Assembly: GCA_963701095.1 (NCBI GenBank)
Contig: OY969564.1
Coordinates: 800,001-864,000 of the forward strand
Direction of reading: 5' to 3'
Length of the DNA: 64,000 bases
From: an uncultured Methanoregulaceae archaeon
GTDB lineage: Archaea; Halobacteriota; Methanomicrobia; Methanomicrobiales; Methanospirillaceae
The position numbers were made by a program, and so were the translations under genes. Every line of letters starts with the position of its first letter. Within the stretch, counting starts at the first letter, position 1. The notes under the pieces were generated by a model, which was not told the DNA's origin, searched no databases, and was given only the letters and a program-made list of their open reading frames with translations. Below, one piece after another: positions 1 to 37,642 of the stretch.

Positions 1-218
1 TCGATAGCAGACTACACGTGGACCCGGTTCAACAACATCTCCGGCTTGGTCCCTGGAGTCACGACTTTCGGAAGCGAATTGACCCTTCTGTATTCCCCGT
101 CAGTCATCGCCACTTCCAGCCTTGCTGGCATGGTAAGTTATCTGTGGAATGGAACGACTTTCGCAAGCCAATAGGGGGCACGTTGCAATCAAGCCAGACT
201 TCAAAAGGTGAAAACGAT

Positions 219-16800: not shown

Positions 16801-16907
16801 CATTCAAAATCGGCTAATTTTTTAATTTGAAATAAATTCAATGTTTCAAAATAAACCGTCTGTTTGAGTTTTTTATATGCGACATTTACTAAATCAGTTG
16901 AATCCAT
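13826..16907 (-). CDS. Reverse transcriptase-nitrilase fusion (DRT1/UG1/UG5-like defence RT); frameshift near 15685
   Basis: RT motifs SLDLKQCFY, LPIGLASS, YGRYVDDILI; nitrilase-fold motifs LVLPELSIP, KNHFAPRE, YNCYE; removing one A in GAGAAAGTC fuses the two ORFs (KSYNILFDGSTNK). Confidence 0.85.
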
Positions 16908-17099
16908 TCTAGCCTTCTAGAAGATAAAATGAAATTTTATTATATATAAATTAGGTACTATCGTATCAAAATTAAACTAGTTAGGATATTCGCAATTGAG
17001 TTAACGGAGAAAGTTACACTCCATTCCGGGTTTGTCCTATCCTCAATTGGTTTTATTAGCCCTTAGCCTTTTCAGTCGAAGTCAAATGCATAATTCTTA

Positions 17100-17960
17100 T
17101 TAATGATTTAGAATTTTTTCCGGGCAGACCTCTGCATACTTACAACTCATACACTCCCTTTGCGAAGGCCGTGCCGGGAAATTCCCGAATTCGTAACTCG
17201 TGTTCATCGCCGCAAACTCACGGAGGATCATTTCCTGCACATTGTGTAACTGATCCTCATAGAAGGCGTAGGGTTTCGTTACGCCGGTTTTCAGGTAAAC
17301 AAGTTCTGTGCCAATATTATCGATACTCATCTTGTAGTATTCTTTTGCCCAGAGCACATATGCCATCATCTGAAGTTCCGTTTCGTACTCATCATCGTCC
17401 CTGCCGGTCTTCCAGTCCGTGAGGATGAGAGTGCTTTCAGGCATCCTCCCGACAAAATCAACCTTGACTGTTACCTCGACATCCTCAATATAGAAATGAT
17501 CATACTGCTCATGCCTTAGGCACCCCCGATTCTCATAGGCTGGCCATTTTCCGAAAAATGTCTGCAGGCATGTCTTTCCGTTCTCGTAGATATATGTAAA
17601 GAAAGTGCTGGGGATCTTCTCGCCGTTGTGGTATTCGGTGAAGGTCTCGCCGCCGATATTTTCGTACAGCGAAACTTTTTTCGAGAATGCATCTAGTGCC
17701 TCGGCAAGATCAATCGGCTTGTTCTCGCAATGGAGCTGGATCTGCTGGTCGATGATATCGTGGATGAGCTGTCCCTGAACGACAAATTTGGACGTGAAGT
17801 TCTTGAGCCACCGGATTTTATCCGGATCAACGACCACCTCACTTTTCACATACGGTGCGATGTACTCGTAATAATATTGCCTCTGGCACCGGTTCCAAAC
17901 CCTGTGTTTGGTAAACGACCACGTGTTGATCTTGAAGAAAAAGGGATCGAGATCCGGCAT
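17100..17960 (-). CDS. PD-(D/E)XK nuclease, Cas4/AddB-like with four Cys
   Basis: WSFT..CQRQYYY, GQLIH, KVDF, LTDWKTG, QMMAY, CMSCKYAEVC. Confidence 0.85.
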   Translation of the reverse strand: MPDLDPFFFKINTWSFTKHRVWNRCQRQYYYEYIAPYVKSEVVVDPDKIRWLKNFTSKFVVQGQLIHDIIDQQIQLHCENKPIDLAEALDAFSKKVSLYENIGGETFTEYHNGEKIPSTFFTYIYENGKTCLQTFFGKWPAYENRGCLRHEQYDHFYIEDVEVTVKVDFVGRMPESTLILTDWKTGRDDDEYETELQMMAYVLWAKEYYKMSIDNIGTELVYLKTGVTKPYAFYEDQLHNVQEMILREFAAMNTSYEFGNFPARPSQRECMSCKYAEVCPEKILNH

Positions 17961-18203
17961 ATGGTTCTGTTGCAAGGGAATCCCGAAATATGTTTCCTTT
18001 AAAGGGTCTAGTGGTTCTGTTAACTTAGTCAGGGATCGGATATTTTATTAGGAGTTGGAAAATTTGATAATCCCATAACAAGTTGACGGAGCCTTAGGAA
18101 CGATGATTGGGTTGGCGGTAAAATAAATCCCAATATCTTATTCAAATCATTAAACAATAAGTTTATTTTGTTATTTTCCCTTCATCTGAATAACAGATAT
18201 TAT

Positions 18204-18884
18204 ATGACACTTGTAGTTGTATTTCCAGCAAAAGACGGGGTTGTTATTGGTTCTGATACGCAATTAACAAGAGGAAGTACACGTTGTCAAGATCTGAAAA
18301 TTATAGGATTCAGTCCCAATTGTTTATGGGCTGCTGCGGGTGATATTCCTCTTATTCAACGATTTAAAAAAGAACTAAACAAAACACCTGCAAAAAAGAA
18401 ATCTTTGGAATCAACAAGAGATGAAATAAGTCAAATAATAAAGAAAGTAATGAGTCAAGCGATGAAAACCGACGTTCGTTTTGATATGGTTAGTCATCCA
18501 ACTGACCTTTTACGCCTATATAATCTTGAAATAATTTTTGCTGAGTACACTAATACACCCACAATATATCATTACTTAAATACAGGTGTTTCTGAAATTT
18601 TAGAGCGCCCTCATGCTATTGGTGTAGGCCATGATTTTGCATTTGCACTTTTACAAAAATACGAAAATACTATTCGTGAGTTTGATACAGATAAAGCCTT
18701 AATTTTAGTATATAAAATTCTTAACGAAGCCATTAAGGTTGGAGCCTATGATATTAATTTCCCTATTGATATTTGGGTTATAAAATCGAATGGAGCAAAG
18801 CCTATTCAAGGGGAAGAACTTGATACACTTCATAATAAATTTCAAGAATTGCAAGATAAAGAAGTAAAACTATTAATTCCGTAA
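18204..18884 (+). CDS. Proteasome beta-subunit-like Ntn hydrolase
   Basis: MTLVV..KDGVVIGSDTQLT..LKI (Thr1, Asp17, Lys33 equivalents), AAGD. Confidence 0.75.
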   Translation: MTLVVVFPAKDGVVIGSDTQLTRGSTRCQDLKIIGFSPNCLWAAAGDIPLIQRFKKELNKTPAKKKSLESTRDEISQIIKKVMSQAMKTDVRFDMVSHPTDLLRLYNLEIIFAEYTNTPTIYHYLNTGVSEILERPHAIGVGHDFAFALLQKYENTIREFDTDKALILVYKILNEAIKVGAYDINFPIDIWVIKSNGAKPIQGEELDTLHNKFQELQDKEVKLLIP

Positions 18885-19019: not shown

Positions 19020-19175
19020 CTTATTTCCAACAGTATCTTTCTTATTCGCTGGATTATTATTATTTTCTAATATTTGTCCTTCTGTTTGTTCTTTTGCGAC
19101 AACCCGTGACTTATCACTTAATTCCAAATTTATCAACCTGTCGTTAACTTATAAGAACCCCACGATCCATCCCCA

Positions 19176-19257
19176 TTCCCCAATCCCTCCCCATTCCTTC
19201 CTTTTCTGCCGAATTCATACCCAGATATAACCCCACAAAACACCAATATATTCAATG
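19176..19257 (+). promoter_or_regulatory. Conserved virion-gene promoter module, copy 1
   Basis: CT-rich tract, GCCGAATTCAT (19208), GATATAA, ATATTCA-ATG; ATG 47 nt after motif start. Confidence 0.8.
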
Positions 19258-20376
19258 CCCGATTCTCAAAAACTCGCCGCGGTCGACAACGAAGGGACGT
19301 TCTCCCACTCTTCTCATGATGTCCGGCTCCAGCGGCTCGACACGTACCTTCCCTACACCGGCACCCCATCCGGGAAACTGAAGTATACCGTAGACAACTT
19401 CGCCGGTACAGAAAAAGCCTGGGACAACGCTCTCGCCGTCTTTGTCCCGGAAGGCGTCCCCGTCCAGCACGTAGACCATACCCGGTTCGCCCATGATGCA
19501 CATGCGGAGGCTGCCCGGTTAGGGTACAGAATTGTCGGGCACCATGCAGATACGAAAGTCATAGACCAAGGCCCCGGAGAGCCGCGGGTCATGACCAAAG
19601 CCGTCTTCACCGACCCCGCAGTAGACCGGCTCGCACGTGAAGGAAAACTCTCCGTCTCAAGCGGCTTCGACGCCGAAATCATCCCCGGGGAAGACCGCAT
19701 GGCCGGTACCGTAACCCCCAACCACGTCCTCTACTTCATCAGGAACGAACCTACCGCCTTTGGCACAAAAGCCACGCCAAACGACCTCGGCGCCATGGTC
19801 GACAACCTCCAGGAACAAACCCCCGAAAACACGCTCCCAGGAACTCGCATGATAGAAACTGAAGAAACCAAAACGCTCCTTGAAAAGATCGCAAAGAAAG
19901 TCGACAACATCAGGGAACACGTCGTACCGAAACCCGAAGACCTCCAGGCCGCGGTTGACAACCTCAGGAAAGAAAGCGAGGACAAGACAGCAGAGATCAC
20001 CACCCTCAGACACCAGGTCACGGAGAAAGACACCACGATAACCGAGCTCCAGAAAAGCAAAGACCAGCTCGACAACCTCCTTGCACAGAAAGCCGAGGAA
20101 ACCAGGAACCAGCGGTGGCAGGAGGTCAAGAACCTGTACAAACCGGCACTCTTCCACAAGACCGACGACGAAACCCGGCTCCGGAACGAATTCGAACAGG
20201 ATCCCGCCGGGTTCGTTCTTGCAAACGTCAGTAACCTCGCACCCGCCCCGGCCAAACAGGAAGCACAAGGAAAATCAGCGATAGGAAACGTCGATAGCAT
20301 GGAAAAAATCGATACCCGCAAAGCCGCCGGCGTCTACGATGCCACGACCAAATCCATGAGACCGCTGGAGGGATAG
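19255..20376 (+). CDS. Prohead protease/scaffold (DUF2213-like)
   Basis: LSVSSGFDA, PNHV, C-terminal coiled coil; precedes capsid genes. Confidence 0.7.
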   Translation: MPDSQKLAAVDNEGTFSHSSHDVRLQRLDTYLPYTGTPSGKLKYTVDNFAGTEKAWDNALAVFVPEGVPVQHVDHTRFAHDAHAEAARLGYRIVGHHADTKVIDQGPGEPRVMTKAVFTDPAVDRLAREGKLSVSSGFDAEIIPGEDRMAGTVTPNHVLYFIRNEPTAFGTKATPNDLGAMVDNLQEQTPENTLPGTRMIETEETKTLLEKIAKKVDNIREHVVPKPEDLQAAVDNLRKESEDKTAEITTLRHQVTEKDTTITELQKSKDQLDNLLAQKAEETRNQRWQEVKNLYKPALFHKTDDETRLRNEFEQDPAGFVLANVSNLAPAPAKQEAQGKSAIGNVDSMEKIDTRKAAGVYDATTKSMRPLEG

Positions 20377-22300: not shown

Positions 22301-25300
22301 TTATTGGATGGTATTAGTGGTTCCTCCATTGATGGTATATTGAACTGATGTTCCATTTGCATATTTGAATTGATAGATATTGGGGAGCAGTTCAATACCG
22401 TTTGAGAATGTTCTCCAGCCATTCGCATAATATTGAGTAACATTTCCTGAGCTTGAAATCACTTGGCCTGTCTGGAAATTAACAATTAAATTGACGGAGG
22501 TATTTTGAATCAGCGTGTTTGTCCCACCTGCATAGGTCATTTGAAATGAATACGCTCCAGGTAGCATATTAAACATTGTCGAACCTGTTGAATCAGTTGT
22601 TCCAAACGGTTTCCATCCGTTGGCGTAATATGTTACAATTCCAGAGGATAGCGGGTTTCCGGCGCTATTCACCAATTTTACAGTTGCATTAGGAGCTTGG
22701 AATATTACTAACGAATTTTGACTGATATTCTGGGGAATATTGTTTGAGGTTCCAACGTAAACCATCTGGAATGTATACGATACAGGAAGAAGCTCAAGCG
22801 AGCAAGAGCCTCCGTTTGTTGATCCAAACGTCTTCCAACCGTTTGCGTAATACTGGACCGAACCGGCATTTGCAGCAGTAATAAGATTTCCATTACCGTC
22901 AATCAACTCTGTGGTGACATTAGTCGTCTGGAAGGTGACAGTGGGACTTACGCTTACGTTCTGAAGGAGGTTTTGCGCCCCTCCTGCATAGTCCATCTGG
23001 AACGTGTACGATAGAGGAAGGAGTTCTAGTGAACATATTCCGGCATTTGTGGATCCGAATGTCTTCCAGCCATTTGCGTAATATTGGACAGAACCGGCGC
23101 CTGGACCGGTTATGAGGTTGTTCTTACTGTCGAGTAATTTTACGGTCACATTTGTCGTCTGGAATGTTACAACAGATGATGAAATTACTGTTTGGAGCAG
23201 ATTTTGGGTTCCTCCACCATAATTCATTTGGAATGTATAGGTTCCCGGTGCAATATTCGATGTTGCAAGACCGTTTGCATTTGTCGTTCCAAAAGATTTC
23301 CAACCATTTGAGTAGTAATTGACTGTCGCACCAGAGATGCCTTGTCCCAGGCTATTCTTAAGAGCAACTGTAACACCTTGGGAGGTTTGGGGTGCATTCA
23401 CTTGAATATAATTAATGATGGTATCGGTATTGCTCCCACCTGCATTTGTAACCGTCAAACTCACAGTATAGTTACCAGCTGTACCAAAGGTGTGAGTGAC
23501 ATTCTGGAGGGAAGAATATGTACCGTCTCCGAAACTCCAGCTCCACGAAGTCGGTGAGTTCAGTGAGGTATCATTGAACTGTACAGTTAACGGAGCCGTT
23601 CCTGAAGTTGCATTTGATACAAACGAAGCAACCGGGGCGACGACGGGTGCTGAGACATTGATGTATTGAGTGACGGAGGTCATTCCTGCGTCATTTCCTG
23701 CAGTCAGAGTAACCGTGTAATTACCAACATTGCTATACGTATAGGTTGGATTTTGGAGAACTGATGAGTTCCCATCACCAATATTCCAAATCCAATAAGT
23801 GGGAGAATTCGTAGAGATGTCGGAAAATTGAACAGTCAATGGGGCCGCTCCCGTTGTCACATTAGAAGTGAAATTAGCATCGGGCGGATAAAACCCATCA
23901 ACGATAATATAATTATACTGTGTTCTTGTATCACTCCCAAGACCATTGCTTGCCGTTAATGAGACGGTATAATTTCCTGGATTTTGATAAGTATGTACCG
24001 GATTTTCCAAATTTGATTCCTGACCGTCCCCGAAATCCCATGACCATTGCGTTGAATTGCGAATGGATTCATCAGTAAATGTAACGGTCAACGGGCCAAA
24101 TCCTGAGGTAACATCTGAAGTAAATTGGGCACTTGGAGGGGCTGAAACGTTTAATTCCGTTGCATATTGGTTATTTAACTCTTGATCTTGTTGTTGAGAG
24201 AGATTGATGAGATTTGGAATTGTCTCATTATAATTAACAATTAATGATGTTGGTGCCATTAAAGTAAGATTCTTAATTGAATTTATCTCATGATCATTAT
24301 ATCCCATCTCCTTCAAGATCTGGATGTAATCCGATGGTAGACCGTTCTGACCGATTGCATTCTCTGCAGATATAATATCAGATTCAGTGGGCTGATACCC
24401 GATAGCTTGTAAATAATTTAATGCGGGACCTGACAAGACATTTTCTGTTTGATCATCATTCACCATTTTACTAGTATAATTGTAACATTCTATCTGTAAT
24501 TTTGCAGCCCAAATTGTATCATTAGCATCTAAAGCGCCTTCGTATTTGGCATATGCCTCTGCATAAGCCGAAGTGTCTGCTGCTGAAACGAGACTCTGTT
24601 GGGCAAATTTCTTTAATGGAGTATTCGGTGACTGATCAAGTTGTGGGATATCTATTGGTGTATCATTGATAGGCAAGGTGTAATTTGGATCCGGATCTGA
24701 GGCTGCCACATTATACTCTTCGCTTGTTTTAAATTCTGCAGCAGCCATTGTATACAGATCGGGATTATAAGTAGTAGTGGATATAGACTGTATAGATCCA
24801 CCTTCTTCTCCTTCATTCCCTCCGAACTCTATTACCAAAGTTGCGGTGGCTTGTAAAGACCAAATATCGCTAACTATTGAATGATAAAAACCTTGGGCAA
24901 GATCTATATCTTTTTCAAATGGTACAATTATTGGTACTATTATCGAAGTGCCTTGAGAAATATCGGGGGAGTTAAATTCATATTCATAATCAACCCCGTT
25001 ATCGGCAGCAATTAGGTTGCCGGCTTGAAGACCTGTCGATAAAATACTTAATAGTCTATCTACTTTATCTATTGCTTGCTGGAAAGGAGTACCTTCGTTT
25101 ATTGTTAGAGCATTCCCTACAGCATTTGCCATATCTGCGTCATTCGCAACATTATCAACGATCTCCTGCCCATTTTCATAATAGGTGTTACTTTCGAGCC
25201 ATAACCAATTCCAATCGTGTTGATAGTCCCCGCAAACAGGTCCTGTCAAATGGCGATGTTACCGTTACTGGGTGAGTTTCGTTATGTGTAGGTTGTATAG

Positions 25301-25859
25301 GACTGTGAGCAGTTATCCAATATGGCAATTCGGTTATGGTAATAGTGGTTGGGATAGAATAAGGCATCCCGTACGGATCGTGTAACTGTGCACATACTTG
25401 ATACGGCTGGTTCTTGTATAAAATAGGATTAATTACTGGGGAACAAATGCCATAAAGATTACATTGCCCAGCTTGCGAGTATACTTCATCGAAGGTGAGA
25501 GTCCCTATCCATGTAAGCTCGGCATTAATGGTATACGGGCCACTACTTTCAACATCAACCGTTGTTGACCAATCTTGGTATCCATAAAGCTTCACTGTAA
25601 TAGTATGAGTGCCATATTGTAAGAAATAGGCACCCGGAGTCACACCAGCAATCCCTGAACCATCCACAAAAAATTCAGCTCCAGCAGGAGTGGATGATAT
25701 ATCAACTTCTCCAGTGGGCGGTGGCGGGGTAGGAGTAGGGCCTCCAGATGGGGGGAGTGTAGCAGGTACCATCGGCATCATGCCTGCCGCCGATACAAAA
25801 TTGCTCATCATTACAACCATAAAAATTGCAAAAAATGAAATTATAAGTAGTCTTTTCAT
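22301..25859 (-). CDS. Secreted surface protein: signal peptide, PEGA, three PKD domains and YY(A/S)NGW repeats; frameshift near 25200-25250
   Basis: MKRLLIISFF signal; ISSTPAGAEFFVDG (PEGA); WSWDFGDG PKD repeats; five YY(A/S)NGW(K/R)xF repeats. Confidence 0.75.
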
Positions 25860-26012
25860 AAAATCAATATATTCATTAAAAAAATATACTATTTAACTTT
25901 TATCATTTAAATCTCTCATAATTTTGTCGATCATAAAATGAAAGAAAATGCTTCTTATACTGTAAAAACTTATTATAAATTTTAACAAAAAGTTTGTATA
26001 TCGTTATTTAAT

Positions 26013-26870
26013 CTATTTAATGCCATTCAATGCTACGAATATGAGTCCACTGATAAAAGTAATAATACCTAAGGAGATAATGAGGTAAATCGGTTTTGCT
26101 TTTTTTGCTATGTTCATGAGGAAATCTATCGCTAAATAACTGACGACAGTTGCGATAATTATTGTTATAACAATGCCAAGAATACCGGGACCAGCAATTG
26201 ATGCCATTAAATTAGCCGAATCAATACTAATCAACTCGCCTAAACTGGTGACGACTACGCATGCCAAAATAATTAGCGGCAAAAAAGAAAGGCGAAATGC
26301 TTCTTTTCCTTTGACATTTAATAATACAAGTGCGATTGTTGTTACCCCGGGAAGGCTTATCCCGGGAAGAAGGCAAAGATCTTGTATTATGCCAATAAGT
26401 ACGTATTCTCCGAATTTTATATCTAATAGCTGTCGCCTGAAATTATCATCTGTATATTTCGATTTAGAATACCAAATTACAAACGTATAAATAAAGAGGA
26501 TTATTCCAAGAAATGTTATGGGTAATCCGTCATTATACCACGAAAGTTGTCTAAGAACAAGCAATGGAAGAAAAAATACGAGACTAACAATACCTGTAAC
26601 AAGTATATATTTGAATAATCCCCACTCATCAGAGGTTCCCTTCCCAAGAAGTGCTTTAATGAGCGATATTATATCTTTCCTGAAATAAACAAGACCTGAT
26701 AAAGCAGTGCTGATATTTAGAATTAATACAAAATCAGATGCCTGAAGATTATTCAAGCCAAGAAGGTGTTGTGATAAAATGAATGCCTGACCACCAACTG
26801 GTAACCAAACGGTTACTGCCTGAATTACCCCAATAACTATTGAAAAGAAAATTTGTACAAGATTTAACAT
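26013..26870 (-). CDS. UppP/BacA-family membrane protein with degenerate catalytic motifs
   Basis: IGVIQAVTVWLPV, LVYFRKDI, IGIIQDLCLLPGIS, EAFRLSFL. Confidence 0.75.
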   Translation of the reverse strand: MLNLVQIFFSIVIGVIQAVTVWLPVGGQAFILSQHLLGLNNLQASDFVLILNISTALSGLVYFRKDIISLIKALLGKGTSDEWGLFKYILVTGIVSLVFFLPLLVLRQLSWYNDGLPITFLGIILFIYTFVIWYSKSKYTDDNFRRQLLDIKFGEYVLIGIIQDLCLLPGISLPGVTTIALVLLNVKGKEAFRLSFLPLIILACVVVTSLGELISIDSANLMASIAGPGILGIVITIIIATVVSYLAIDFLMNIAKKAKPIYLIISLGIITFISGLIFVALNGIK

Positions 26871-27196
26871 AATATCAAAATATTGTATGACAAATTTTAT
26901 ATAATTTATTGTTATATTTGGGTCTACGAAAATTCTGCATCGCGTTGAAACTTTGCTCCTCCTGAAGACTTTTCAGAACCACAAAAAATAGCGATAATAA
27001 TTCCAATTATCCATAAACCGGTTTGATTATTCGATATATTAGATAAAGTTCCATTGATATCCATTGATAGAATAGCCTCACGGTATGATGCAATATAATT
27101 ACCGTTATTAAATAGCACACTTCATTTTCTATTGAATTAATCGGATAACTCCGAACTGAGGTGCCAATTTTCCCAAATTCAATCAATCCAACCGCT

Positions 27197-27280
27197 TTTT
27201 CCCCAATCCATCCCTTTTCCTCCCGTTTTTGCCGAATTCATACCCAGATATAACCCCATACAACCCCAATATATTCAATG
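27197..27280 (+). promoter_or_regulatory. Conserved virion-gene promoter module, copy 2
   Basis: GCCGAATTCATACCCAGATATAACCCCA (27231) ... ATATTCA-ATG (27278). Confidence 0.8.
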
Positions 27281-27894
27281 CCCGATGCGCCGATAGCCTC
27301 CAAACCAACCGTCGTCAACATCCTCATGCCGGATGGTACAATAAAGCCCTGGAACCGGGCAACCGAACCCAAACCTGACAGTATAGGCAACCAGAGCCGG
27401 AACGGGTTCCTGTTCAACTGTTATTTTCATCCGCTCGGCCGGTTTTTCCAGAATACCATCAAAGCCGGGATCCTCTCGGTTATCCGGCGCATCCATGACA
27501 AGGAAATCCCCCGGTACGACCGGCAGGCATACGTCTACGAAGATAAACGGCTCCAGGTCTTAGACAAAATCATTACGGACGCAATCGAACGCACCATCCA
27601 GGACGCAGACAAAGACCGCAAACAGGAGATCCTCAACCAGTGCAAGGATATCTGCCTGTTCATGCTCAAGGAAGACGCCTTCTACCGGCCCCGGGTATCG
27701 AAGCAACCGTCCGGGCAGCAGAACAGATCCTGGAGAACAAAAATCTGCTCCTTTCCCTGACCGATTACGAAGCCTACAACATGACCCGGTTCGCGGACGG
27801 CACCAACCATGCCGGTGACTTTTCCGATCTTCCCGAAGATGAACGCTCGAAGCTCCCCAAACACTGGACGGACGGGAGCGTGTACGGCAGATGA
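27278..27894 (+). CDS. Hypothetical viral protein; frameshift near 27710
   Basis: ORFs 27278-27760 and 27640-27894 join; ATGA overlap with next gene. Confidence 0.55.
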
Positions 27895-28376
27895 CGACCG
27901 TCTTTGACACCTCCGGCAATATCATGCAGGAAGTTACGGATATCAGCAACTACACGGTCCCCGGCACCATCTCCATTCCAACATTCCTGCGGTTCCTGGC
28001 CAAAGCCGAAGAACAGGTCACCCTCGATGACCCCGGGTTCCAGCTCGCACAATGCACCGAAGCCGTGGCTCTCTACATCTGCCACCAGATTTACCGGAAG
28101 ACCGGGAAAAGCGGCGTAACCTCGGAACGGTTGGGAAGTTACAGTTTTTCCCGGGGTAAAGGGGTGCAGCTCACTCCCTGGCTGGACGATTACTACGATC
28201 TCATCGAACGGGTCCGGGCACCGGTGATCTCGCTCAGTACGCTCGATACCAACGGTGTCCGGCGCGACGATGCAACCATGAACCTGCTCCGGCCCGACCA
28301 GGCATGGGTTGTGGGAAGCGACGAGCAAACAAACCCGCCGACCGGAGGCATGGGCGATCTCATGGGGTACCGGTGA
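27891..28376 (+). CDS. Head-tail connector/adaptor
   Basis: EAVALYICH..GVTSERLGSYSFSR typical of gp6/gp15-type adaptors. Confidence 0.65.
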   Translation: MTTVFDTSGNIMQEVTDISNYTVPGTISIPTFLRFLAKAEEQVTLDDPGFQLAQCTEAVALYICHQIYRKTGKSGVTSERLGSYSFSRGKGVQLTPWLDDYYDLIERVRAPVISLSTLDTNGVRRDDATMNLLRPDQAWVVGSDEQTNPPTGGMGDLMGYR

Positions 28377-28630
28377 TGGCTGACGCCACAAAACCACAAA
28401 CCGACCGCGAATGGCTGGTCCAGATTGACGGCAAGGTGGACTCTATCCTTTCCCGGCTGGAAAAAGGGGATTCCTGTATGAAAGATTACAGTGACCGGCT
28501 CGATGCCCTGGAGAAGTTCCAGGCGAAGCTCATCGGCATTGCCATAAGTGTGTCTTTACTCGCATCGTTCTGCGGGTACTGGATACTCTGCAAGTTAAGC
28601 GAACTGGGTATCGGCGGCGGTGGTCGCTGA
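28376..28630 (+). CDS. Small coiled-coil plus TM protein (holin-like)
   Basis: MADATKP..RLDALEKFQAKLIGIAISVSLLASF; start overlaps previous stop. Confidence 0.5.
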   Translation: MADATKPQTDREWLVQIDGKVDSILSRLEKGDSCMKDYSDRLDALEKFQAKLIGIAISVSLLASFCGYWILCKLSELGIGGGGR

Positions 28631-28975
28631 ATGGATATCACCAGTGGCCTGCTTGCCCAGACGGTAACTATCGCACCGTTCCTTTCCCTGAGCCAGAACG
28701 GTGACCGCAGTTTTGGGACACCGGTTACCTATCCCTGCCGGGAAGAAAACGAGATCCGGGTGATCAAGAACAAGCAGGGCGAAGATGCGGTGAATTCAAG
28801 CCAGCTCTATCTTTCGCCAACCTACACCGACGCTTCCGGGAACGTGTGGCCTACAGTGATTGGCTATTATGACCGGATTACGCTCCCCAGCGGTACGCAA
28901 CCGCCGGTAATCCTGAAGATTAACAGTTATACCGACCTTGACGGATCGGTGGCATACATCGAGGTCGATACCTGA
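28631..28975 (+). CDS. Head closure protein
   Basis: QTVTI..GDRSFGTPVTYPCR..NKQGEDAVNSSQLYL; position. Confidence 0.6.
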   Translation: MDITSGLLAQTVTIAPFLSLSQNGDRSFGTPVTYPCREENEIRVIKNKQGEDAVNSSQLYLSPTYTDASGNVWPTVIGYYDRITLPSGTQPPVILKINSYTDLDGSVAYIEVDT

Positions 28976-29399
28976 TGACGGTGACGTTCACCCTTGAAGG
29001 AACTGACGAGGTTGTGGCAAACGTGAATCGAGCCCTGCAGGAAGTCCCGGAACTGGTGTTCGGGGAACTGGTGGGATATGCCGACCAGATACTTCTGGCA
29101 TCCGAACCACAGGTACCATGGAAGACCATGCACCTTGAAGAGACGGGAACGGTTGAACCGGTAGATGACGACCCCAACGCCGTCCAGATTGTGTATGATA
29201 CTCCCTACGCCGCTAAGCAGCACGAGGATTTGACCCTGCACCACCCGAAACCCGGGACCAAAGCGAAATACCTGGAGGATCCCGCGATGGCTATGGTACC
29301 GGAGATTGTACCGGGATTGTGGATAAACTGCAGGATTATTTCGATACTGGGGTTCCGGATGTGACTGCGTTATCTGCATGGGAACACTTGGATGAATAA
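28975..29399 (+). CDS. HK97 gp10-like neck/tail completion protein; probable frameshift near 29320
   Basis: VPWKTMHL, YDTPYAAKQHE, GTKAKYLEDP; alternative frame ends DKLQDYFDTG..EHLDE*. Confidence 0.7.
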
Positions 29400-29540
29400 T
29401 CCCACGACGGTTCAGTTTCTTCGCCGGGACTTTTAAATAGTCAGCATTGATCAGATAATCCCGCTCTGAAGCAAATGTGAAGAAACAGCACTTGAGGACA
29501 TTGTATTGGGACAAAGAAAAGTTGCGCAGATACGTTTTGT

Positions 29541-30290
29541 CTATTTTTGAAGACCAAATATTATATTTGTTATTCGACTAGTTCCTATTCCACAACATCC
29601 AGTGTAAAATGATTCCCCTACTGGAATTTCCAAACCTTCAATAAAAATTCTTCCATGAAGATGAAACCCTACAACTTCGATCCAAGAATTATCAACCAAC
29701 ACCTCAATATCTCTAACCATAAGTTCTTTTGTATCGTTTTCTTCGTTGTTTTTTATAGAAATGCGTGTAGTTAATCCAAGATTTGATAGTGTGTTTTCTA
29801 AATTTTTCATTAATTCGCTCAAAATAAATTTTGCTTCATCAATTGGAGCGAACCATACGCATTCTATCCTTTGAAACTCGAATAGCCTATAATCATTTAC
29901 ATCTTTTTCAACTCTATAAGTCCATCCCGATTTATCAAAAAATTTTATCGTTTTATGGGGCTTCCTATTTTTTAAGAAATAGTAAAATGGTTCACATTGC
30001 CAATGTGATAAAGTATATTTTTTTGGATAATTCCGTGAACTCATTCCTTCTTCGGTGTTAATTATTTCTTTTGACCATTCTTTAGCAAATCGAGGGACAA
30101 CATTTTTTAAGTTACAAAATTGATCAAACATAAGTAATTTGGGAAAGAGACACTCTTCAAACCCAGCTTCAGTTAAAGATTGCGCTAATTTTGATTCAAC
30201 TGCTCTAAATTTTGAAGTATATTCTGGCAAATATAGTCTTTGACCCTGCCACCCAATTTCTTCCCATAACTCTTTCTTTTTATTTTTCAT
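29541..30290 (-). CDS. Stand-alone catalytic domain of methanogen-type seryl-tRNA synthetase (class II aaRS paralogue)
   Basis: EECLFPKL, QCEPFY, FDKSGWTYR, EFQRIECVW, TGCCGIGTSR; only 249 aa, no tRNA-binding domain. Confidence 0.8.
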   Translation of the reverse strand: MKNKKKELWEEIGWQGQRLYLPEYTSKFRAVESKLAQSLTEAGFEECLFPKLLMFDQFCNLKNVVPRFAKEWSKEIINTEEGMSSRNYPKKYTLSHWQCEPFYYFLKNRKPHKTIKFFDKSGWTYRVEKDVNDYRLFEFQRIECVWFAPIDEAKFILSELMKNLENTLSNLGLTTRISIKNNEENDTKELMVRDIEVLVDNSWIEVVGFHLHGRIFIEGLEIPVGESFYTGCCGIGTSRITNIIFGLQK

Positions 30291-30293
30291 ATT

Positions 30294-31271
30294 TTAAACC
30301 TTCCGAATTTTTTCAAAATGTTCTAATAAATATTTAAGCGCCGTTTCTTTAATAACTGGTTTTCCAGAATGATCTTTTACAATGTTTTCATACGAAGAAT
30401 AATCATTATCGCCAATTTTTATTGTTTTATACATTTGAAAAACTATGTAATCAAAAATTAATTTAATGAATTCGTTTGAACATTTATTAATAATATCTGC
30501 AATCACCTCAGGATCTTGATCACTATATATTGAATTTGAGGATTTCCCAGTGGAAAGGGGCAAGGAGTCAGTTCCACATAAAGTGTCAAAGTACAAGATT
30601 AATGGGGCATTATAATCGGGAAGGCCGCCATCAACAACAACCTTCCTCATTAATCCGCCCCAAATTGTTTCAACATCACCTTTTCCTGTCAACAACACTT
30701 GGCTTTTAACAATGTTTCCATAGGAAATTTCACAAAAATTATTTATTAAATCCCTAATCGGATTTTCCCTAACAATCCATTTTTTAATCCATTCTTCGTT
30801 GAAATCACATTTATACGCAATTGATAAGAGTGTGTTTGAAAATTTTTCATAACCTATATATTCCAAAATATTAGATTCTGTTAAAAATTCTGTTTTGGTT
30901 GGTGTCAATCCAGCTTGTATGTACCTTTTAATACAAGTTTCAACTCTCTTATCTATAGTTGGTTTTGGGATATGTTGTTGTTTTTCAATTAATTGGTCAT
31001 AAAATAACACCACACAATTAAATCCCTGATCTATACATTGCTTAATTTTTAGGCAAAATATTGCATGGAGAAGGTTATACTCTTCTGATGGTTGAACATT
31101 CCAAATTAAAATTGGGGCTTCTTTTTTATCATTGATTTTATCCCAAATAATATGTAACTCCGAATCTGCGGAACCAGACGTAGAATAGCGAGATAATTCT
31201 ACCTTTGGTGAAATTATTAAAATTTTATTTTTAAATTCCTGAAATGTTTCAGCTTTTTCAATCATGTTCAT
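30294..31271 (-). CDS. TyrRS/TrpRS-like class I aaRS paralogue with degenerate HIGH/KMSKS motifs
   Basis: IWNVQPSEEYNLLH, CVVLFYD, LLTGKGD, TLCGTD..LSTGKSSNSIYSDQDPEVI align by eye with the archaeal TyrRS core. Confidence 0.6.
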   Translation of the reverse strand: MNMIEKAETFQEFKNKILIISPKVELSRYSTSGSADSELHIIWDKINDKKEAPILIWNVQPSEEYNLLHAIFCLKIKQCIDQGFNCVVLFYDQLIEKQQHIPKPTIDKRVETCIKRYIQAGLTPTKTEFLTESNILEYIGYEKFSNTLLSIAYKCDFNEEWIKKWIVRENPIRDLINNFCEISYGNIVKSQVLLTGKGDVETIWGGLMRKVVVDGGLPDYNAPLILYFDTLCGTDSLPLSTGKSSNSIYSDQDPEVIADIINKCSNEFIKLIFDYIVFQMYKTIKIGDNDYSSYENIVKDHSGKPVIKETALKYLLEHFEKIRKV

Positions 31272-31698
31272 TCGACCCCAGATAATTTTTCAGGAATTGC
31301 TTTATCTCATCAAAGGATTTGAAAATAAAAAATATGATGGTTAAAATAATGCCTATTATTCCAATATAGAAATCAAATATAGGTACTGTAACAAATTCAT
31401 TTTTCCATAAATAATTCAAAATCTCAATAATTAGGACTACTAGTGAAAGAAAAGTTATTATTAAACATAATAATCTGATTTTAATAATCTTTTCTGAAGA
31501 AATATTGTATCGTTTTTCTTTAGATAATATATATCTATTAAAACCATTTCTCGTAACTTTAATATTAGGATTCTTAAACACATCAAATATTTTGCTTGCA
31601 TTTTCGTTTGGAATCTCAATTTTTATTTCCACATCACCAGATAATGTTAATATCAACTGCTCAAGACTACTGATATCATTAATTATTTTTTGTTCCAT
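31258..31698 (-). CDS. Two-TM membrane protein, first gene of the aaRS-like operon
   Basis: Two hydrophobic helices; overlaps downstream gene start. Confidence 0.65.
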   Translation of the reverse strand: MEQKIINDISSLEQLILTLSGDVEIKIEIPNENASKIFDVFKNPNIKVTRNGFNRYILSKEKRYNISSEKIIKIRLLCLIITFLSLVVLIIEILNYLWKNEFVTVPIFDFYIGIIGIILTIIFFIFKSFDEIKQFLKNYLGSNEHD

Positions 31699-31892
31699 AG
31701 GTCATGATTGATAATGTTACTAACGATATCTCCACTTACATGATATAATTTTTGAATCAATCAATCGTATTGTGTTAAGGGGAATTTAGACGTCCCTTTG
31801 ATGCGGAGTAATGTTGACCAAACACAATAAAATAATCTTTTGAGAATATTAGACTTAAAAAGAGGGTTGTAAAATTCTTTTAAAAAGTCTTC

Positions 31893-31974
31893 TTTTCCAA
31901 AATCCCCCATTTTCCTCCCGATTTTGCCGAATTCATATTCAGATATAACCCGTAAAACACCACTATATTCAATG
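31893..31974 (+). promoter_or_regulatory. Conserved virion-gene promoter module, copy 3
   Basis: GCCGAATTCATATTCAGATATAA (31926) ... ATATTCA-ATG (31972). Confidence 0.8.
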
Positions 31975-32021
31975 GCCTATTTTCAGCTCGCATTGGTCAA
32001 TAACCAAAGAGGCCGGTTTTC

Positions 32022-32416
32022 ATGACCGCTGAGACTGATATCGCCACCTATCTCGCAGCCCAGGGATTTGGTACCCTCGGTTCTAATATTTTCGTCAACG
32101 ACCGGCCTGCCTCACCGGATGCCCTTATTGCAGTCTTCGGGTATACTGGCCAGGCCCCGGAACGTACCCACGATACTTCAGGTAATTCCAAGCCCGGAAT
32201 CCAGGTCTGGGTACGGGGAGCGGTAGATGGTGCCGGGCAGCCCGGGCACAGATCGAAAGCATCTTTGCCGCACTCGACGGCATGACGAACACTACCATCA
32301 ACGGGACGTTTTACGTTGGCATCAACGGCATCCAGTCCGGGGCAACCCCGATGGGCAAAGACGAGGTCAACCGTCCCGAATACGTGTGGAACTTTACCTG
32401 TACCGTGAGGCGGTAA
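32022..32416 (+). CDS. Tail terminator/minor capsid-family protein; frameshift near 32240
   Basis: DIATYLAAQGFG, PGIQVWVRG, second frame PMGKDEVNRPEYVWNF. Confidence 0.7.
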
Positions 32417-33770: not shown

Positions 33771-34475
33771 TTATCCCCAGCCCATAAGCTCGTACGTGAT
33801 GGAACCACTTGGGAAATTTGAAATCATCTTGACAGGAACCGGAATGCCTGATGCTGACCAATAGGTAAAGGTCGTTTCATTCACCAATCTGGTATATTTG
33901 CTAGCATTAGGATAGGATCCCGCCGGCACTGAAACTGGTTCAATGTCTACAAAAGTGAGCGGTGTTGCCGTGTTGAAACTTGTTACTGCATCTAGTGAGG
34001 TCTGACCTGGAGGAATGTTCGTTGTTGTTTTCTGGCCATTGAACGTAATTGTCATCGTCCCACCGAGTAAAGAGTTCATCGACAAATCATAGTAAGTATC
34101 ATAAACCGTGTTTAAACCGTTTGTCGAAGATGTCATGGTAATTTTTGAATGGATTGCCGATTGCCCTTGATAAGTTCCGATGGACCTCTCCACCTTCATA
34201 TCCATCACTATAGTGTTACCACCAGTCGCTGTTGTAGCCTGATATTCAAACCAATTGAAGTTCGTTCCGAAGACCGATGAGGAATTTACGATCGAACCTG
34301 CTTGAGGCAATGCCAACGAAGGATTTGATGGCGGGCTGGTCGCAGAAGGAGTGCCCGACGATGTGGGAACGGATACATTCGAAGATGGAGGGGTAGTTTG
34401 AGATGTACAACCCATAAAAGTGATCGCAATAACCACAAGCATAACTGAAATTATACCGACAAATGCTGATTTCAT
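33771..34475 (-). CDS. Putative lipoprotein/surface protein (cargo)
   Basis: Signal with lipobox FMGC, Ser/Pro/Thr linker, VSVPAGSY. Confidence 0.7.
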   Translation of the reverse strand: MKSAFVGIISVMLVVIAITFMGCTSQTTPPSSNVSVPTSSGTPSATSPPSNPSLALPQAGSIVNSSSVFGTNFNWFEYQATTATGGNTIVMDMKVERSIGTYQGQSAIHSKITMTSSTNGLNTVYDTYYDLSMNSLLGGTMTITFNGQKTTTNIPPGQTSLDAVTSFNTATPLTFVDIEPVSVPAGSYPNASKYTRLVNETTFTYWSASGIPVPVKMISNFPSGSITYELMGWG

Positions 34476-34662
34476 TGGTATCCTCCAAAGATTTGAACAG
34501 AAATCACAAAAATCCGTTTTCGTGTATTTGAAATCTTGAATGTTAGGATTGATTGATAATAGTTCATATTTCGGAAATATTTAATAATTTCCAAATTATT
34601 CAAACAAACATTATCGCGACACCTATCCCCATGATTCAGTAATTTATTCAAAATTAAACCTT

Positions 34663-34776
34663 TTTTCCCAATCCCTCCATTTTCCGTGCGATTTTGCCGA
34701 ATTCATGCTCGGCTATAATCCGGCAAAACACCACTATATTCAATGGAAGCAGGCGCTATCATCGTCCGGTTGAATC
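34663..34776 (+). repeat. Promoter module copy 4 plus first 11 codons of tape measure gene (114-bp direct repeat of 35766-35879)
   Basis: Three mismatches over 114 bp by eye; offset 1103 bp. Confidence 0.9.
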
Positions 34777-34820
34777 GCTCTTACTACTTTTGGTCTGGGC
34801 GGTCCTTGCTGGAATAATTC

Positions 34821-35657
34821 TTACACATTCAACATTTCCGGCAACTTTCTCGCCCATGACTTGATCTTATCTCCCTCCTGAAAATCCGTTGAGGGAATAT
34901 TTTTGTTTTTTGCGAAACGTGTCGTGAAGCTAAGTTTTTTCTGACCCGGTGCAGCGGTAAAAAAGATTGAGGAGACCGGAGAGATTGGAGATAATGCCAT
35001 TTTCACGTTTGTCATCACAGAGTCAGGATTCATTCCCTCAAGACCAACAGCAAAAATGGCTACCGGCATGTGTGACAACTGTTCGCTAAAACGTTTTTTT
35101 GTAAAATTTCCAATATCCCCTAAACCTGTTGGTCCGGTAAAAATCGGTACTCCGATAATAACCGCAGAATAATTTTCCAGCGAGGACACGTTTTTCATAT
35201 CAGCTACATCAATAGTATATTCTGCCGTACGCAGTTCGTTTCCGATCTCCTGCGCGATTTCTGGTGTTGATCCGAGGAGTGATGAATAGGTAATGAGAAT
35301 ACGATTGCCGTAAAACTCTCCTCCGTTGTAAGATTCCCCGGATAAGGGCATATTTGTCTTTGTATATCTGTCACTCCAGGAATCCGGAACATATATTCCA
35401 TTGCCTGATGTCGACAACGAAGTCCGGTTTTGACGTTTCAATTCCTGCAGAAGGTGCGAGTGTACAAAATGCCATCGGCAATAATCTAAACATATAGCCC
35501 CAGAAAGTAAAACGACAAAGATGCCGATGTCAAAACCCCTAAAAGGAAGGATTGTAAAACGAAGCTGTGGAATAATGAAGAATAAAATAACAGCTGTCAC
35601 GAGTACTTTCAGAACAAATATTTTCCAATTATTGAAGTATCCAGTAATATAATCCAT
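34821..35657 (-). CDS. Membrane-anchored flavodoxin-domain (HemG-like) protein (cargo)
   Basis: Two N-terminal TMs; ILITYSSLLGSTPEIA, YSAVIIGVPI, PVAIFAVG. Confidence 0.75.
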   Translation of the reverse strand: MDYITGYFNNWKIFVLKVLVTAVILFFIIPQLRFTILPFRGFDIGIFVVLLSGAICLDYCRWHFVHSHLLQELKRQNRTSLSTSGNGIYVPDSWSDRYTKTNMPLSGESYNGGEFYGNRILITYSSLLGSTPEIAQEIGNELRTAEYTIDVADMKNVSSLENYSAVIIGVPIFTGPTGLGDIGNFTKKRFSEQLSHMPVAIFAVGLEGMNPDSVMTNVKMALSPISPVSSIFFTAAPGQKKLSFTTRFAKNKNIPSTDFQEGDKIKSWARKLPEMLNV

Positions 35658-35710: not shown

Positions 35711-35765
35711 AAAAAAAAATCCTAATAAGTGATTTCGAAATAAATTATTCTCCTCAAACCACCCC

Positions 35766-35848
35766 TTTTCCCAATCCCTCCATTTTCCGTGCGATTTTGC
35801 CGAATTCATGCTCGGCTATAATCCGGCAAAACACCACTATATTCAATG
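35766..35848 (+). promoter_or_regulatory. Conserved virion-gene promoter module, copy 5
   Basis: GCCGAATTCATGCTCGGCTATAA (35799) ... ATATTCA-ATG (35846). Confidence 0.8.
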
Positions 35849-37642
35849 GAAGCTGGCGCTATCACCGTCCGGTTAAATCTGGATGCGTCCGGGATGCAGG
35901 GCGGTATCTCCAGCCTCAACCAGGGCATAACCGGCGTTGCTGCACAGTTCGATGTCCTCCAGTATGCGGCATCGGCCGTGTTCGGGTACGTCGAACAGGG
36001 ATTCAGTGATACCGTCGGTACTGCCATTGCGTACTCTGACCAGATGCAGCACGTCTCTGATGTAACCGGCATGAGTGCTGAATCTGCGCAGAAATGGAAC
36101 GCCGCCAATATCTCGGTTGGCGGTTCCCTGGATTCGATGCTCTCTTCGCTCCAGATGGTACAGGGTAAGATCGCCGACACAACCACCGCTGGCAATACCT
36201 ACCGGAAAACCCTGGACGATCTGGGCATCGCGTACAAAGATGTCAACGGCAATTATCTCGACGCCGATACCCTCCAGAAAAACATCCTTGAAAGCCTCAG
36301 CAAAGTAACCGATGCCACCCAGCGGGACTCGGATGCCCGGCTTATCTATGGCCGGGGATGGGCAAGCAATGCCGAACTTATCACGAACGCCACTAAAGCC
36401 CTCCAGACCTATAACGCGACCCCGGCGCCATTCTCCGACGACCAGATAGCCGCTGCCCACAACATGGGAATCGAGCTTGACGAGTTCAATGCCAAACTCT
36501 CCATTACCCAGACCACCCTTGGCATGGAACTGTTACCATCGGTAAACACCTTGGTAACCACATTCAGTTCGGCTTTCAATGAGGACAGCCCGGTCATCAC
36601 CTTTTTCTCATGGCTTGATGGAGCGATTGAAGATTCCGTCGAAGGGTTCGCAAAACTCGTTGGCGGTATCGAAGCCGGCACCATCGCCGTCGCGGATATT
36701 ACCAGCGGGAAAGGACTTGCCCAGGCAACGGCAGATTTCCAGGCCCAGGAAAACAAGACCACCGCTTACATCACCAACCTCCACGGTCAGTTCGATCTCT
36801 CAAAAGAGGCGATGGCTCAAACCTCATCGCCCGCCGAAGCCGCAAGTACCCCTGCCGCCACAACGCCGTCAGATACCACGCCTGCCAAAGCGGCAAAGAG
36901 TACCAAAACCACCACACCAAAAACTGGCTCCGGGTGGGACGATGCCGCCATTGGTCCACCGGGTTCCGAAATGAACCAGTTCATGATGCAGGCAGAGGCA
37001 GCGGGGCAATCCTATAGCGATGCCCTTGACCTCTGGGCCGGAGAAGGCCAGGGTACCCCGGCAAACATTGCGTTCCTGCAGCAGTTCCAGGCCGGACAGG
37101 CAAACCAGGGCATGAATGAGCGGGCAGCCGCAGATTCCGGTAGCACGAGTACAACCACCCCGGCCAGCACGACAAAGACCGCCGATGCCCCGAGCCAGTA
37201 CGATACCCAGCTCAAAGCCGCCCAGAAATTTTACAGCGACCTGCAGGCACTGGAGACCACGCAGCTTACGGCCTTAAACAAGATCGAACAGACGTACTGG
37301 ACAAACGTTACCCAGATGGCTCAGGCAGCGCTTGCCGACTGGCAGAGCATCGCCACCCAGATCTCCAGTATCATTGCGTACGAGAATACAATAACGGCGA
37401 AAAACGGGGTGGCACAGTCCCAACCTTTGGCTGCCCAGACCGTCACCGGTTCTTCCATCAGCACCGCGAACCCAAACACGTCGATAACCGCAGGAAGTCC
37501 CGGTGGAAATACAGCGCCATCCGCTCCGGCGATAACCGTCAACGTCACCGCTCCCTCAACCGACGCCGGCGATATCGTCAACGCTGCAAGGAACGCCCTC
37601 CAGGTAGCCGGTAACAGTGTATCGGCAGGGAGCCTGTACTGA
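35846..37642 (+). CDS. Tape measure protein
   Basis: GAITVRLNLDAS N-terminus, Ala/Thr-rich helical, follows chaperones. Confidence 0.8.
   Translation: MEAGAITVRLNLDASGMQGGISSLNQGITGVAAQFDVLQYAASAVFGYVEQGFSDTVGTAIAYSDQMQHVSDVTGMSAESAQKWNAANISVGGSLDSMLSSLQMVQGKIADTTTAGNTYRKTLDDLGIAYKDVNGNYLDADTLQKNILESLSKVTDATQRDSDARLIYGRGWASNAELITNATKALQTYNATPAPFSDDQIAAAHNMGIELDEFNAKLSITQTTLGMELLPSVNTLVTTFSSAFNEDSPVITFFSWLDGAIEDSVEGFAKLVGGIEAGTIAVADITSGKGLAQATADFQAQENKTTAYITNLHGQFDLSKEAMAQTSSPAEAASTPAATTPSDTTPAKAAKSTKTTTPKTGSGWDDAAIGPPGSEMNQFMMQAEAAGQSYSDALDLWAGEGQGTPANIAFLQQFQAGQANQGMNERAAADSGSTSTTTPASTTKTADAPSQYDTQLKAAQKFYSDLQALETTQLTALNKIEQTYWTNVTQMAQAALADWQSIATQISSIIAYENTITAKNGVAQSQPLAAQTVTGSSISTANPNTSITAGSPGGNTAPSAPAITVNVTAPSTDAGDIVNAARNALQVAGNSVSAGSLY

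Follow-up and report, generated by a model that had tools for sequence, protein, structure and literature searches.

A co-inherited cassette of TyrRS-like, SerRS-like and membrane protein genes in a methanogen provirus: a possible conflict module

Synthetase-derived systems closest to the locus

Paralogues of aminoacyl-tRNA synthetases (aaRS) are a known source of new chemistry, as seen in carrier-protein ligases, cyclodipeptide synthases (CDPSs), PoxA and HisZ. Here, we describe a three-gene cassette on the minus strand (positions 29541–31698) of a 64,000-nucleotide stretch of DNA from an uncultured Methanoregulaceae archaeon, hereafter the window, which corresponds to positions 800001–864000 of a single 2.63-Mb contig. 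Carried as cargo by a siphovirus-like provirus, the cassette encodes a 146-aa membrane protein (gene 1, 31258–31698), a 325-aa paralogue of the archaeal-type tyrosyl-tRNA synthetase (TyrRS) that we regard as a pseudo-synthetase (gene 2, 30294–31271), and a 249-aa minimal catalytic core of the methanogen-type seryl-tRNA synthetase (mSerRS; gene 3, 29541–30290). The first was recognized from its open reading frame (ORF) and translation, the second from profile searches, an AlphaFold2 (AF2) model and Foldseek, and the third from NCBIfam models, PDB alignments and an AF2 model. An apparently intact class II core, combined with a membrane protein and with a TyrRS that is eroded yet complete in its architecture, suggests a new activity; aminoacyl-adenylate chemistry may have a new acceptor here, or tRNA may be sensed by a new mechanism. 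Virus cargo slots are the kind of DNA where immune systems are found, and in methanogen proviruses few candidates for accessory or defence cassettes other than this one have been seen. Since bacterial versions exist, it should be testable in laboratory hosts.

The closest described relatives of the 249-aa protein, in both sequence and fold, are the mSerRS enzymes themselves (3w3s and 2cim/2cja), with which it shares the motif 2 and motif 3 arginines and a Cys/Glu/Cys site. It differs from them in having no N-terminal tRNA-binding domain (about 200 aa in mSerRS), a shorter insertion between motifs 1 and 2, and a pocket strand reading G/H/H instead of N/S/N, and its family forms a separate clade. 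Ligases of the amino acid:carrier-protein type (aa:CP ligases) such as Bradyrhizobium Bll0957 (3mf1, 4h2w) are described in the excerpted text of PMC9437257 as truncated, zinc-dependent class II cores of mSerRS type that likewise have no tRNA-binding domain, and the structural likeness to our protein is good (TM-score 0.77). Unlike those ligases, the cassette protein scores only 15.5 bits against the ligase model NF005479 (cut-off 357 bits), and its partners are a TyrRS-like and a two-transmembrane (2-TM) protein rather than a carrier protein. For the 325-aa protein, a further comparison is offered by the CDPSs (AlbC, Rv2275), which in the excerpted text of PMC3105412 are TyrRS-like Rossmann folds devoid of HIGH and KMSKS, have no C-terminal domain, and carry their catalytic Ser two residues after the equivalent of TyrRS G34. 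Both share a Glu at the TyrRS Q155 position, whereas the 325-aa protein has a C-terminal domain and carries Q60 (R in the family consensus) where the catalytic Ser would stand. Its likeness to the archaeal/eukaryal TyrRS enzymes (2cyb, 1j1u) covers the whole-length fold, including the C-terminal domain, and the difference lies in the loss of KMSKS, of the tyrosine-binding residues and of all but the last His of HIGH.

HisZ-HisG and SLIMP-SerRS provide precedents in which an aaRS paralogue devoid of catalysis serves another enzyme as its regulatory or binding subunit (PMC9437257, in the text excerpted). In those systems, the partner of the paralogue is a non-aaRS enzyme or belongs to the paralogue's own class, whereas in the cassette, which lies on mobile DNA, a class I paralogue has a class II core as well as a membrane protein for partners. 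CBASS- and Pycsar-type operons combine a nucleotide-using enzyme with a small 2-TM effector on mobile or defence DNA. By analogy, the cassette could follow the same operon logic, with no homology to any of their components and with a signal molecule that is hypothetical here. No description of the trio or of a TyrRS-like/SerRS-like operon was found in full-text literature searches, no published example was found of a class I synthetase paralogue paired with a class II one, and the table in the excerpted part of one review lists no function for a non-canonical TyrRS paralogue (PMC9437257). Each part represents a new subfamily within a known fold, and the whole system is without a described counterpart, in line with an earlier sequence-only reading of this DNA, which had proposed an undescribed system.

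A co-inherited cassette and its three proteins

The sequence-only reading had described three tightly coupled, AT-rich antisense genes in a cargo slot, and this layout is borne out at exact coordinates. Genes 1 and 2 overlap by 14 nt, genes 2 and 3 are separated by 3 nt, and GC content falls to 0.28–0.31 in the bins at 30–32 kb vs. 0.57 in the flanking bins. Contigs from four public metagenome runs cover the cassette and join it to the same viral genes (for example, record 2 of X2 spans 27319–30668 and record 31 of X5 spans 31713–32073). The cassette sequence is identical across the runs, and no indel within 29541–31698 was reported in their contigs.

The three genes are co-conserved. Patterns from the alignment of the 249-aa family (A1) were scanned over 185,579 species genomes and JGI metagenomes, which returned mostly true mSerRS enzymes at ~25–34% identity and a few members of the short family (loci L001, L002 and L081–L087), and hidden Markov models of the three families were then run on all ORFs of these records. 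An ORF of the 325-aa family lies directly upstream of the A1 gene and on the same strand in nine of the nine records with upstream sequence (the window, its copy L081, L001, L082, the nearly identical L083, L084, L085, L086 and L087), which represent seven distinct lineages; L002 begins 65 nt before the gene and is uninformative. A TM ORF precedes the pair in all five records that reach far enough (four lineages), where the family alignment A3 was itself built from four of the five and only the homologue alignment is independent. Across the loci, neighbouring genes of the cassette consistently overlap or lie no more than 4 nt apart, and in most loci the GC content of the cassette lies below that of the flanks. 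Hosts and flanks include the methanogen provirus, a Chitinophagaceae metagenome-assembled genome (MAG), an archaeal MAG, a contig of ~60% GC with Ku and LigD, and, at another locus, a contig with cytochrome-bd-sized ORFs. Among 40 related genomes, no family member was found, the matches being at the level of housekeeping TyrRS only, and no fused form was detected with the 325-aa family profile among proteins of 589–2000 aa, which is weak evidence. The trio is a horizontally mobile, co-inherited cassette, present here as AT-rich antisense virus cargo.

The 249-aa protein matches the SerRS models NF002120 (E = 1.9e-26, 92.7 bits, cut-off 611 bits) and TIGR00415 (2.6e-22, 79 bits, cut-off 489.55 bits) as well as the Methanopyrus kandleri SerRS structure 3w3s (E = 6.5e-21), where the alignment is limited to residues 207–256 and 310–485 of the 527-aa chain and hence to the catalytic domain. 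Motif 1 (FPKL), R126 and E128 of motif 2, and R239 of motif 3 are kept. The A1 alignment holds 38 invariant columns in 24 sequences, and the motif 1 proline region, C99, R126, E128, E143, C232 and R239 are invariant in 24/24 members. The stretches QCEPFY, EFQRIE and GCCG, picked out earlier as methanogen SerRS motifs with probable zinc ligands, are present and fall in invariant columns, and this copy retains all strongly conserved family residues. C99, E143 and C232 align with a Cys, a Glu and a Cys of the M. barkeri SerRS (2cim), which we take, together with their numbering, to be its zinc ligands. The AF2 model is confident (pLDDT 90), and Foldseek places mSerRS structures at ranks 1–7, followed by ProRS and Bll0957 ligases. 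Along the pocket strand, an invariant G208-x-H210-x-H212 replaces the N-x-S-x-N of M. barkeri SerRS, so the activated amino acid need not be serine. A tree built from catalytic domains (26 of the short family, 14 housekeeping) sets the housekeeping mSerRS sequences apart on a branch 2.17 long with 100/100 support; the placement of L087 and L002, whose own branches are long, is unsure. Judged from its conserved motifs, the 249-aa protein is apparently the only active ATP-using enzyme of the trio, with its class II adenylation site intact. The SerRS-like character suggested earlier, with no tRNA-binding domain, is thereby confirmed; the likeness to aa:CP ligases suggested alongside it gives way, since the protein is far closer to true mSerRS (92.7 vs. 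15.5 bits).

Searched alone, the 325-aa protein scores E = 0.051 against PF00579 (13.3 bits vs. a 21.1-bit cut-off) and E = 0.31 against 2cyb, the Archaeoglobus TyrRS, and an exhaustive search of 1.84 billion representatives yielded only 29 relatives. A profile of 28 members of this family (A2) matches 2cyb in the PDB with E = 2.3e-15 over residues 9–295 of 323, with dozens of TyrRS and TrpRS chains ranking below it, and PF00579 is matched individually by 12 of the 28. The AF2 model (pLDDT 92.1) aligns in Foldseek with 2cyb (E = 1.7e-15, TM-score 0.78/0.79 over 338 columns), all top matches listed are archaeal or eukaryal TyrRS enzymes, and the ESM Atlas returned a 443-aa cluster at 0.92. Profile and Foldseek both give a class I (TyrRS) fold, and the protein is, according to its predicted structure, a full-length TyrRS paralogue that includes the C-terminal domain. 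The sequence-only reading, which had seen a TyrRS core with eroded HIGH and KMSKS, was therefore right about the fold and the lost motifs, while the restriction to a core does not stand.

HIGH, KMSKS and the tyrosine-binding residues are replaced in the 325-aa family. The HLGH of 2cyb aligns with N66-L67-L68-H69, where only H69 is conserved (96%) and three of the four positions are lost, and its KMSSSK aligns with P238-L-S-T-G-K243, where the family has no conserved Lys. Tyrosine is bound in Mj TyrRS by Y32, Y151, Q155, D158 and Q173 (PMC3105412, in the text excerpted). In the family, the positions aligned with Y32, G34, Q155 and D158 read L/I (L56 in the family, I in this copy), N58, E181 and Y184, and those aligned with Y151 and Q173 are variable. 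The TyrRS-conserved residues P61, H69, D92, D191, D199, R208 and P223 persist in the family.

The 146-aa protein begins with a soluble, mixed-charge head of ~70 aa, followed by two hydrophobic helices at about residues 69–99 and 101–132. Kyte-Doolittle profiles give two hydrophobic segments in four of four family members (the 146-aa protein and three aligned homologues), and homologues occupy the same position in L082, L083, L085 and L086. No significant match was obtained in Pfam, NCBIfam, PADLOC or PHROG, and all structure rows from the ESM Atlas have a TM-score below 0.5. At the Chitinophagaceae locus (L001), the SerRS-like gene is followed at 1099–1498 (plus strand) by a pair of short ORFs that overlap and include a hydrophobic stretch; they have no family match and may represent a differently placed membrane partner.

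A conflict role weighed against other functions

We favour, with a probability of roughly 0.4, the reading that the cassette is a virus-borne conflict module, serving anti-virus defence or superinfection exclusion and assembled out of synthetase components. Its zinc-dependent class II core, the 249-aa protein, would make an aminoacyl-adenylate or convert one into a nucleotide product. The 325-aa paralogue, presumably unable to activate tyrosine, keeps a domain of anticodon-binding type at its C terminus and could recognize tRNA or another RNA, acting as a sensor or as a substrate-presenting subunit. The 2-TM protein, encoded by the first gene and translationally coupled, would then act at the membrane as effector or anchor and convert the signal into an arrest of growth. 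The losses in the two soluble proteins are complementary, which suggests that they work together; a complex prediction for the pair from the A2 and A1 alignments scored 0.00 and bears neither for nor against pairing. A conflict role is favoured by the patchy, mobile distribution, by the operon logic of an enzyme with a small TM protein, and by two instances of defence-like context. The latter are a sister slot of the same provirus that carries a DRT system with a Cas4-like nuclease and, at L084, an AAA_15 ATPase ORF ~300 nt downstream of the pair (1403–1861, plus strand; the contig ends inside it), which best matches AriA/OLD/GajA models (3.1e-12). A DUF433 gene lies upstream of the cassette in L086.

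Several observations weigh against this reading. PADLOC-DB v2 gave as its best match BrxB with E = 0.019 for the 249-aa protein and nothing for the other two, and none of the three proteins matched a PHROG family. Recognizable defence neighbours occur in only two of the seven distinct lineages. The genomic context lends the defence role proposed in the sequence-only reading moderate support and no more. At L085, the neighbours are Ku, LigD, a beta-lactamase-family protein and PadR/ABC genes. Cargo status does not imply defence, given that other slots of the provirus carry envelope-type genes, and no cassette relative was found in IMG/VR viral contigs with the A1 patterns or in phage and plasmid collections with tblastn. 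Finally, this copy of the 325-aa protein departs from its family at E185G, D191Q, R208M and P229D, positions that are 89–100% conserved in the other 27 members, and it is possibly functionally altered because of these changes.

These same departures, together with the truncated length and the eroded class I motifs, could be taken to mean that the synthetase-like genes are non-functional remnants of housekeeping synthetase genes. We consider decay extremely improbable and already contradicted. The ORFs are intact and identical in sequence across metagenome runs, the families are conserved, the AF2 models are confident, and the 249-aa family is set apart from housekeeping mSerRS by the long, fully supported branch described above. 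In addition, the SerRS of the host is bacterial-type (505.9 bits), no second mSerRS-type gene was found in the host genome, and the TyrRS of the host is encoded elsewhere in it. With decay set aside, none of the three outcomes that the sequence-only reading had named as refuting it is borne out, the other two being a 325-aa protein of a fold other than class I and genes that are not co-conserved.

A role in minimal aminoacyl transfer or peptide-type biosynthesis is unlikely in our view. The class II core would activate an amino acid and the TyrRS-like protein would act in CDPS fashion on an aminoacyl-tRNA or take the adenylate, giving a dipeptide, an aminoacyl-nucleotide or a similar product; the TM protein would serve for export or immunity. 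The known aa:CP ligases are truncated mSerRS homologues (PMC9437257, in the text excerpted), and the fold match to 4h2w and 3mf1 is good. CDPSs are TyrRS-like enzymes that work without ATP motifs (PMC3105412, in the text excerpted). In the 325-aa family, E181 (89%) stands at the position of TyrRS Q155, which in the CDPS AlbC is taken by E182 of the catalytic pocket (PMC3105412). Several findings speak against this role. No PP-binding carrier gene was present among the 46 window ORFs scanned, PF00550 and PF01648 (PP-binding proteins and ACPS-type phosphopantetheinyl transferases) gave zero matches in the 2.6-Mb single-contig host genome (marker completeness 86%), and no carrier ORF was found in L001 or L082–L087. 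The absence of a visible carrier gene, remarked on in the sequence-only reading, thus extends to the whole genome and makes a phosphopantetheinyl carrier an unlikely acceptor here. A classical aa:CP ligase was rejected on this ground and on the low NF005479 score. Likewise, a CDPS identity was rejected for the 325-aa protein, in which the acyl-enzyme serine position is R/Q60, the C-terminal domain absent from CDPSs is kept, and no CDPS is among the top fold matches listed; the CDPS parallel that had been drawn earlier needs this correction. Moreover, no tailoring or transporter genes occur at any locus, and a 146-aa 2-TM protein is an unlikely exporter.

Two further readings take the complementary losses and the membrane partner, respectively, as their starting points. 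A class II core that keeps catalysis with no tRNA-binding domain, beside a class I paralogue that keeps its architecture with no catalysis, could form a two-subunit non-canonical synthetase in which the TyrRS-like protein docks the tRNA and the SerRS-like protein charges a non-cognate amino acid, to the benefit of virus or host through translational reprogramming rather than defence. The tight translational coupling in all lineages and the G208-x-H210-x-H212 strand, which suggests a non-serine substrate, agree with such an enzyme. Against it stand the conserved membrane protein, which would be left unexplained, the very rare and patchy distribution, and the absence of a dedicated tRNA gene in any of the eight loci scanned or in the nearby window, so that we hold it to be distinctly improbable. 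Alternatively, the cassette could serve lysogenic conversion of the envelope, with a TM-anchored complex whose aminoacylation target would be a lipid, a component of the S-layer or cell wall, or the head domain of the TM protein itself. Neighbouring slots encode UppP/BacA, PKD and PEGA proteins and a SlpA_N-like protein, and the membrane protein is obligatory in the trio; yet no transferase or flippase partner is present, the host envelopes are very different (methanogen, Bacteroidota and a high-GC bacterium), and the TM head has no recognizable acceptor or carrier fold, which leaves little probability for this role as well.

The most far-reaching possibility, to which we likewise assign a low probability, is a natural hybrid machine in which the class II core and the class I tRNA-docking subunit act on one tRNA and are coupled to the membrane effector, so that mobile elements sense or mis-acylate tRNA in virus conflict. 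If true, class I and class II would be joined in a heteromeric synthetase derivative for the first time, and an immune mechanism would be based on aminoacylation chemistry.

The surrounding provirus and its other cargo

The host carries mcrA (231 bits) and is therefore a methanogen. The siphovirus-like provirus occupies roughly 1–42 kb of the window on the plus strand and encodes a large terminase, a Mu-type portal, a major-head-like protein, head-tail connectors, a tail terminator, a tail tube, a tape-measure-sized ORF, and Dit and Gp37-like tail proteins. The trio has the head-tail connector genes on one side and the tail-terminator gene on the other and is one of four AT-rich minus-strand cargo slots that break the provirus, the others lying at 13826–17975, 22301–26870 and 33771–35657. 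On the minus strand of the first of these, a DRT UG5 system with reverse transcriptase and nitrilase parts is encoded as two ORFs (a 414-aa reverse transcriptase and a 614-aa nitrilase part; PADLOC 2.6e-106 and 5.2e-134) along with a Cas4-like PD-(D/E)XK nuclease; the division into two ORFs is either a real split or an assembly frameshift. The slots at 22301–26870 and 33771–35657 carry envelope-type genes, also on the minus strand, for a 982-aa PKD-repeat protein, a PEGA-domain protein, UppP/BacA, a SlpA_N-like protein and a membrane flavodoxin-domain protein. With the DRT and Cas4-like genes in one slot and these envelope-type genes in two others, the provirus cargo is a mix of defence and envelope genes.

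Upstream of the cassette, a non-coding leader (31699–31873, minus strand) contains an A/T-rich TATA-like stretch ~45–50 nt before the first ATG, which we infer from its sequence to be the promoter. The leader has no match in Rfam, and no tRNA or Rfam family was found in or beside the cassette across 27.0–36.5 kb of the window and the eight loci scanned, a few sub-gathering Rfam rows in L001 being judged chance. The slot boundary at 31874–31975 (no strand assigned) is one of five copies of a ~100–120-nt repeat (repeat families D1, D2 and D4), which recurs with 63–96% identity on the plus strand at 19156–19288, 27179–27311, 31874–31975, 34644–34776 and 35747–35879. Each copy lies at the right edge of an AT-rich antisense slot, just before the plus-strand viral genes resume, and the repeat may be a reiterated promoter or a slot-boundary or recombination element. 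Metagenome contigs branch with loose ends at 31911–31985, that is, at the 31.9-kb copy. In one X2 contig, position 31986 is linked to 33612 through 40 unrelated letters and the tail terminator and tail tube region is skipped; this junction may reflect a related virus or a repeat artefact.

A comparison of the window with contigs of two to four metagenome runs revealed one-base indels at 27697, 29310, 32234 and 33088, all in GC-rich viral genes. The indel at 32234 lies within the tail-terminator ORF (32022–32285), which matches profile positions 1–56 of 118 only and is followed by an ORF in another frame (32282–32416). Such differences suggest that the assembly contains errors or that viral genes of this genome carry frameshifts. 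Elsewhere in the provirus, a 238-aa ORF (18168–18884, plus strand) matches the proteasome-subunit family PF00227 (5.2e-08), which is unusual for a tailed virus, and may encode an Ntn-hydrolase-type protease. At the left end, a 659-aa protein (18–1997, plus strand) combines an N-acetylmuramoyl-L-alanine amidase domain with five IPT/TIG repeats in a virus of an archaeal host.

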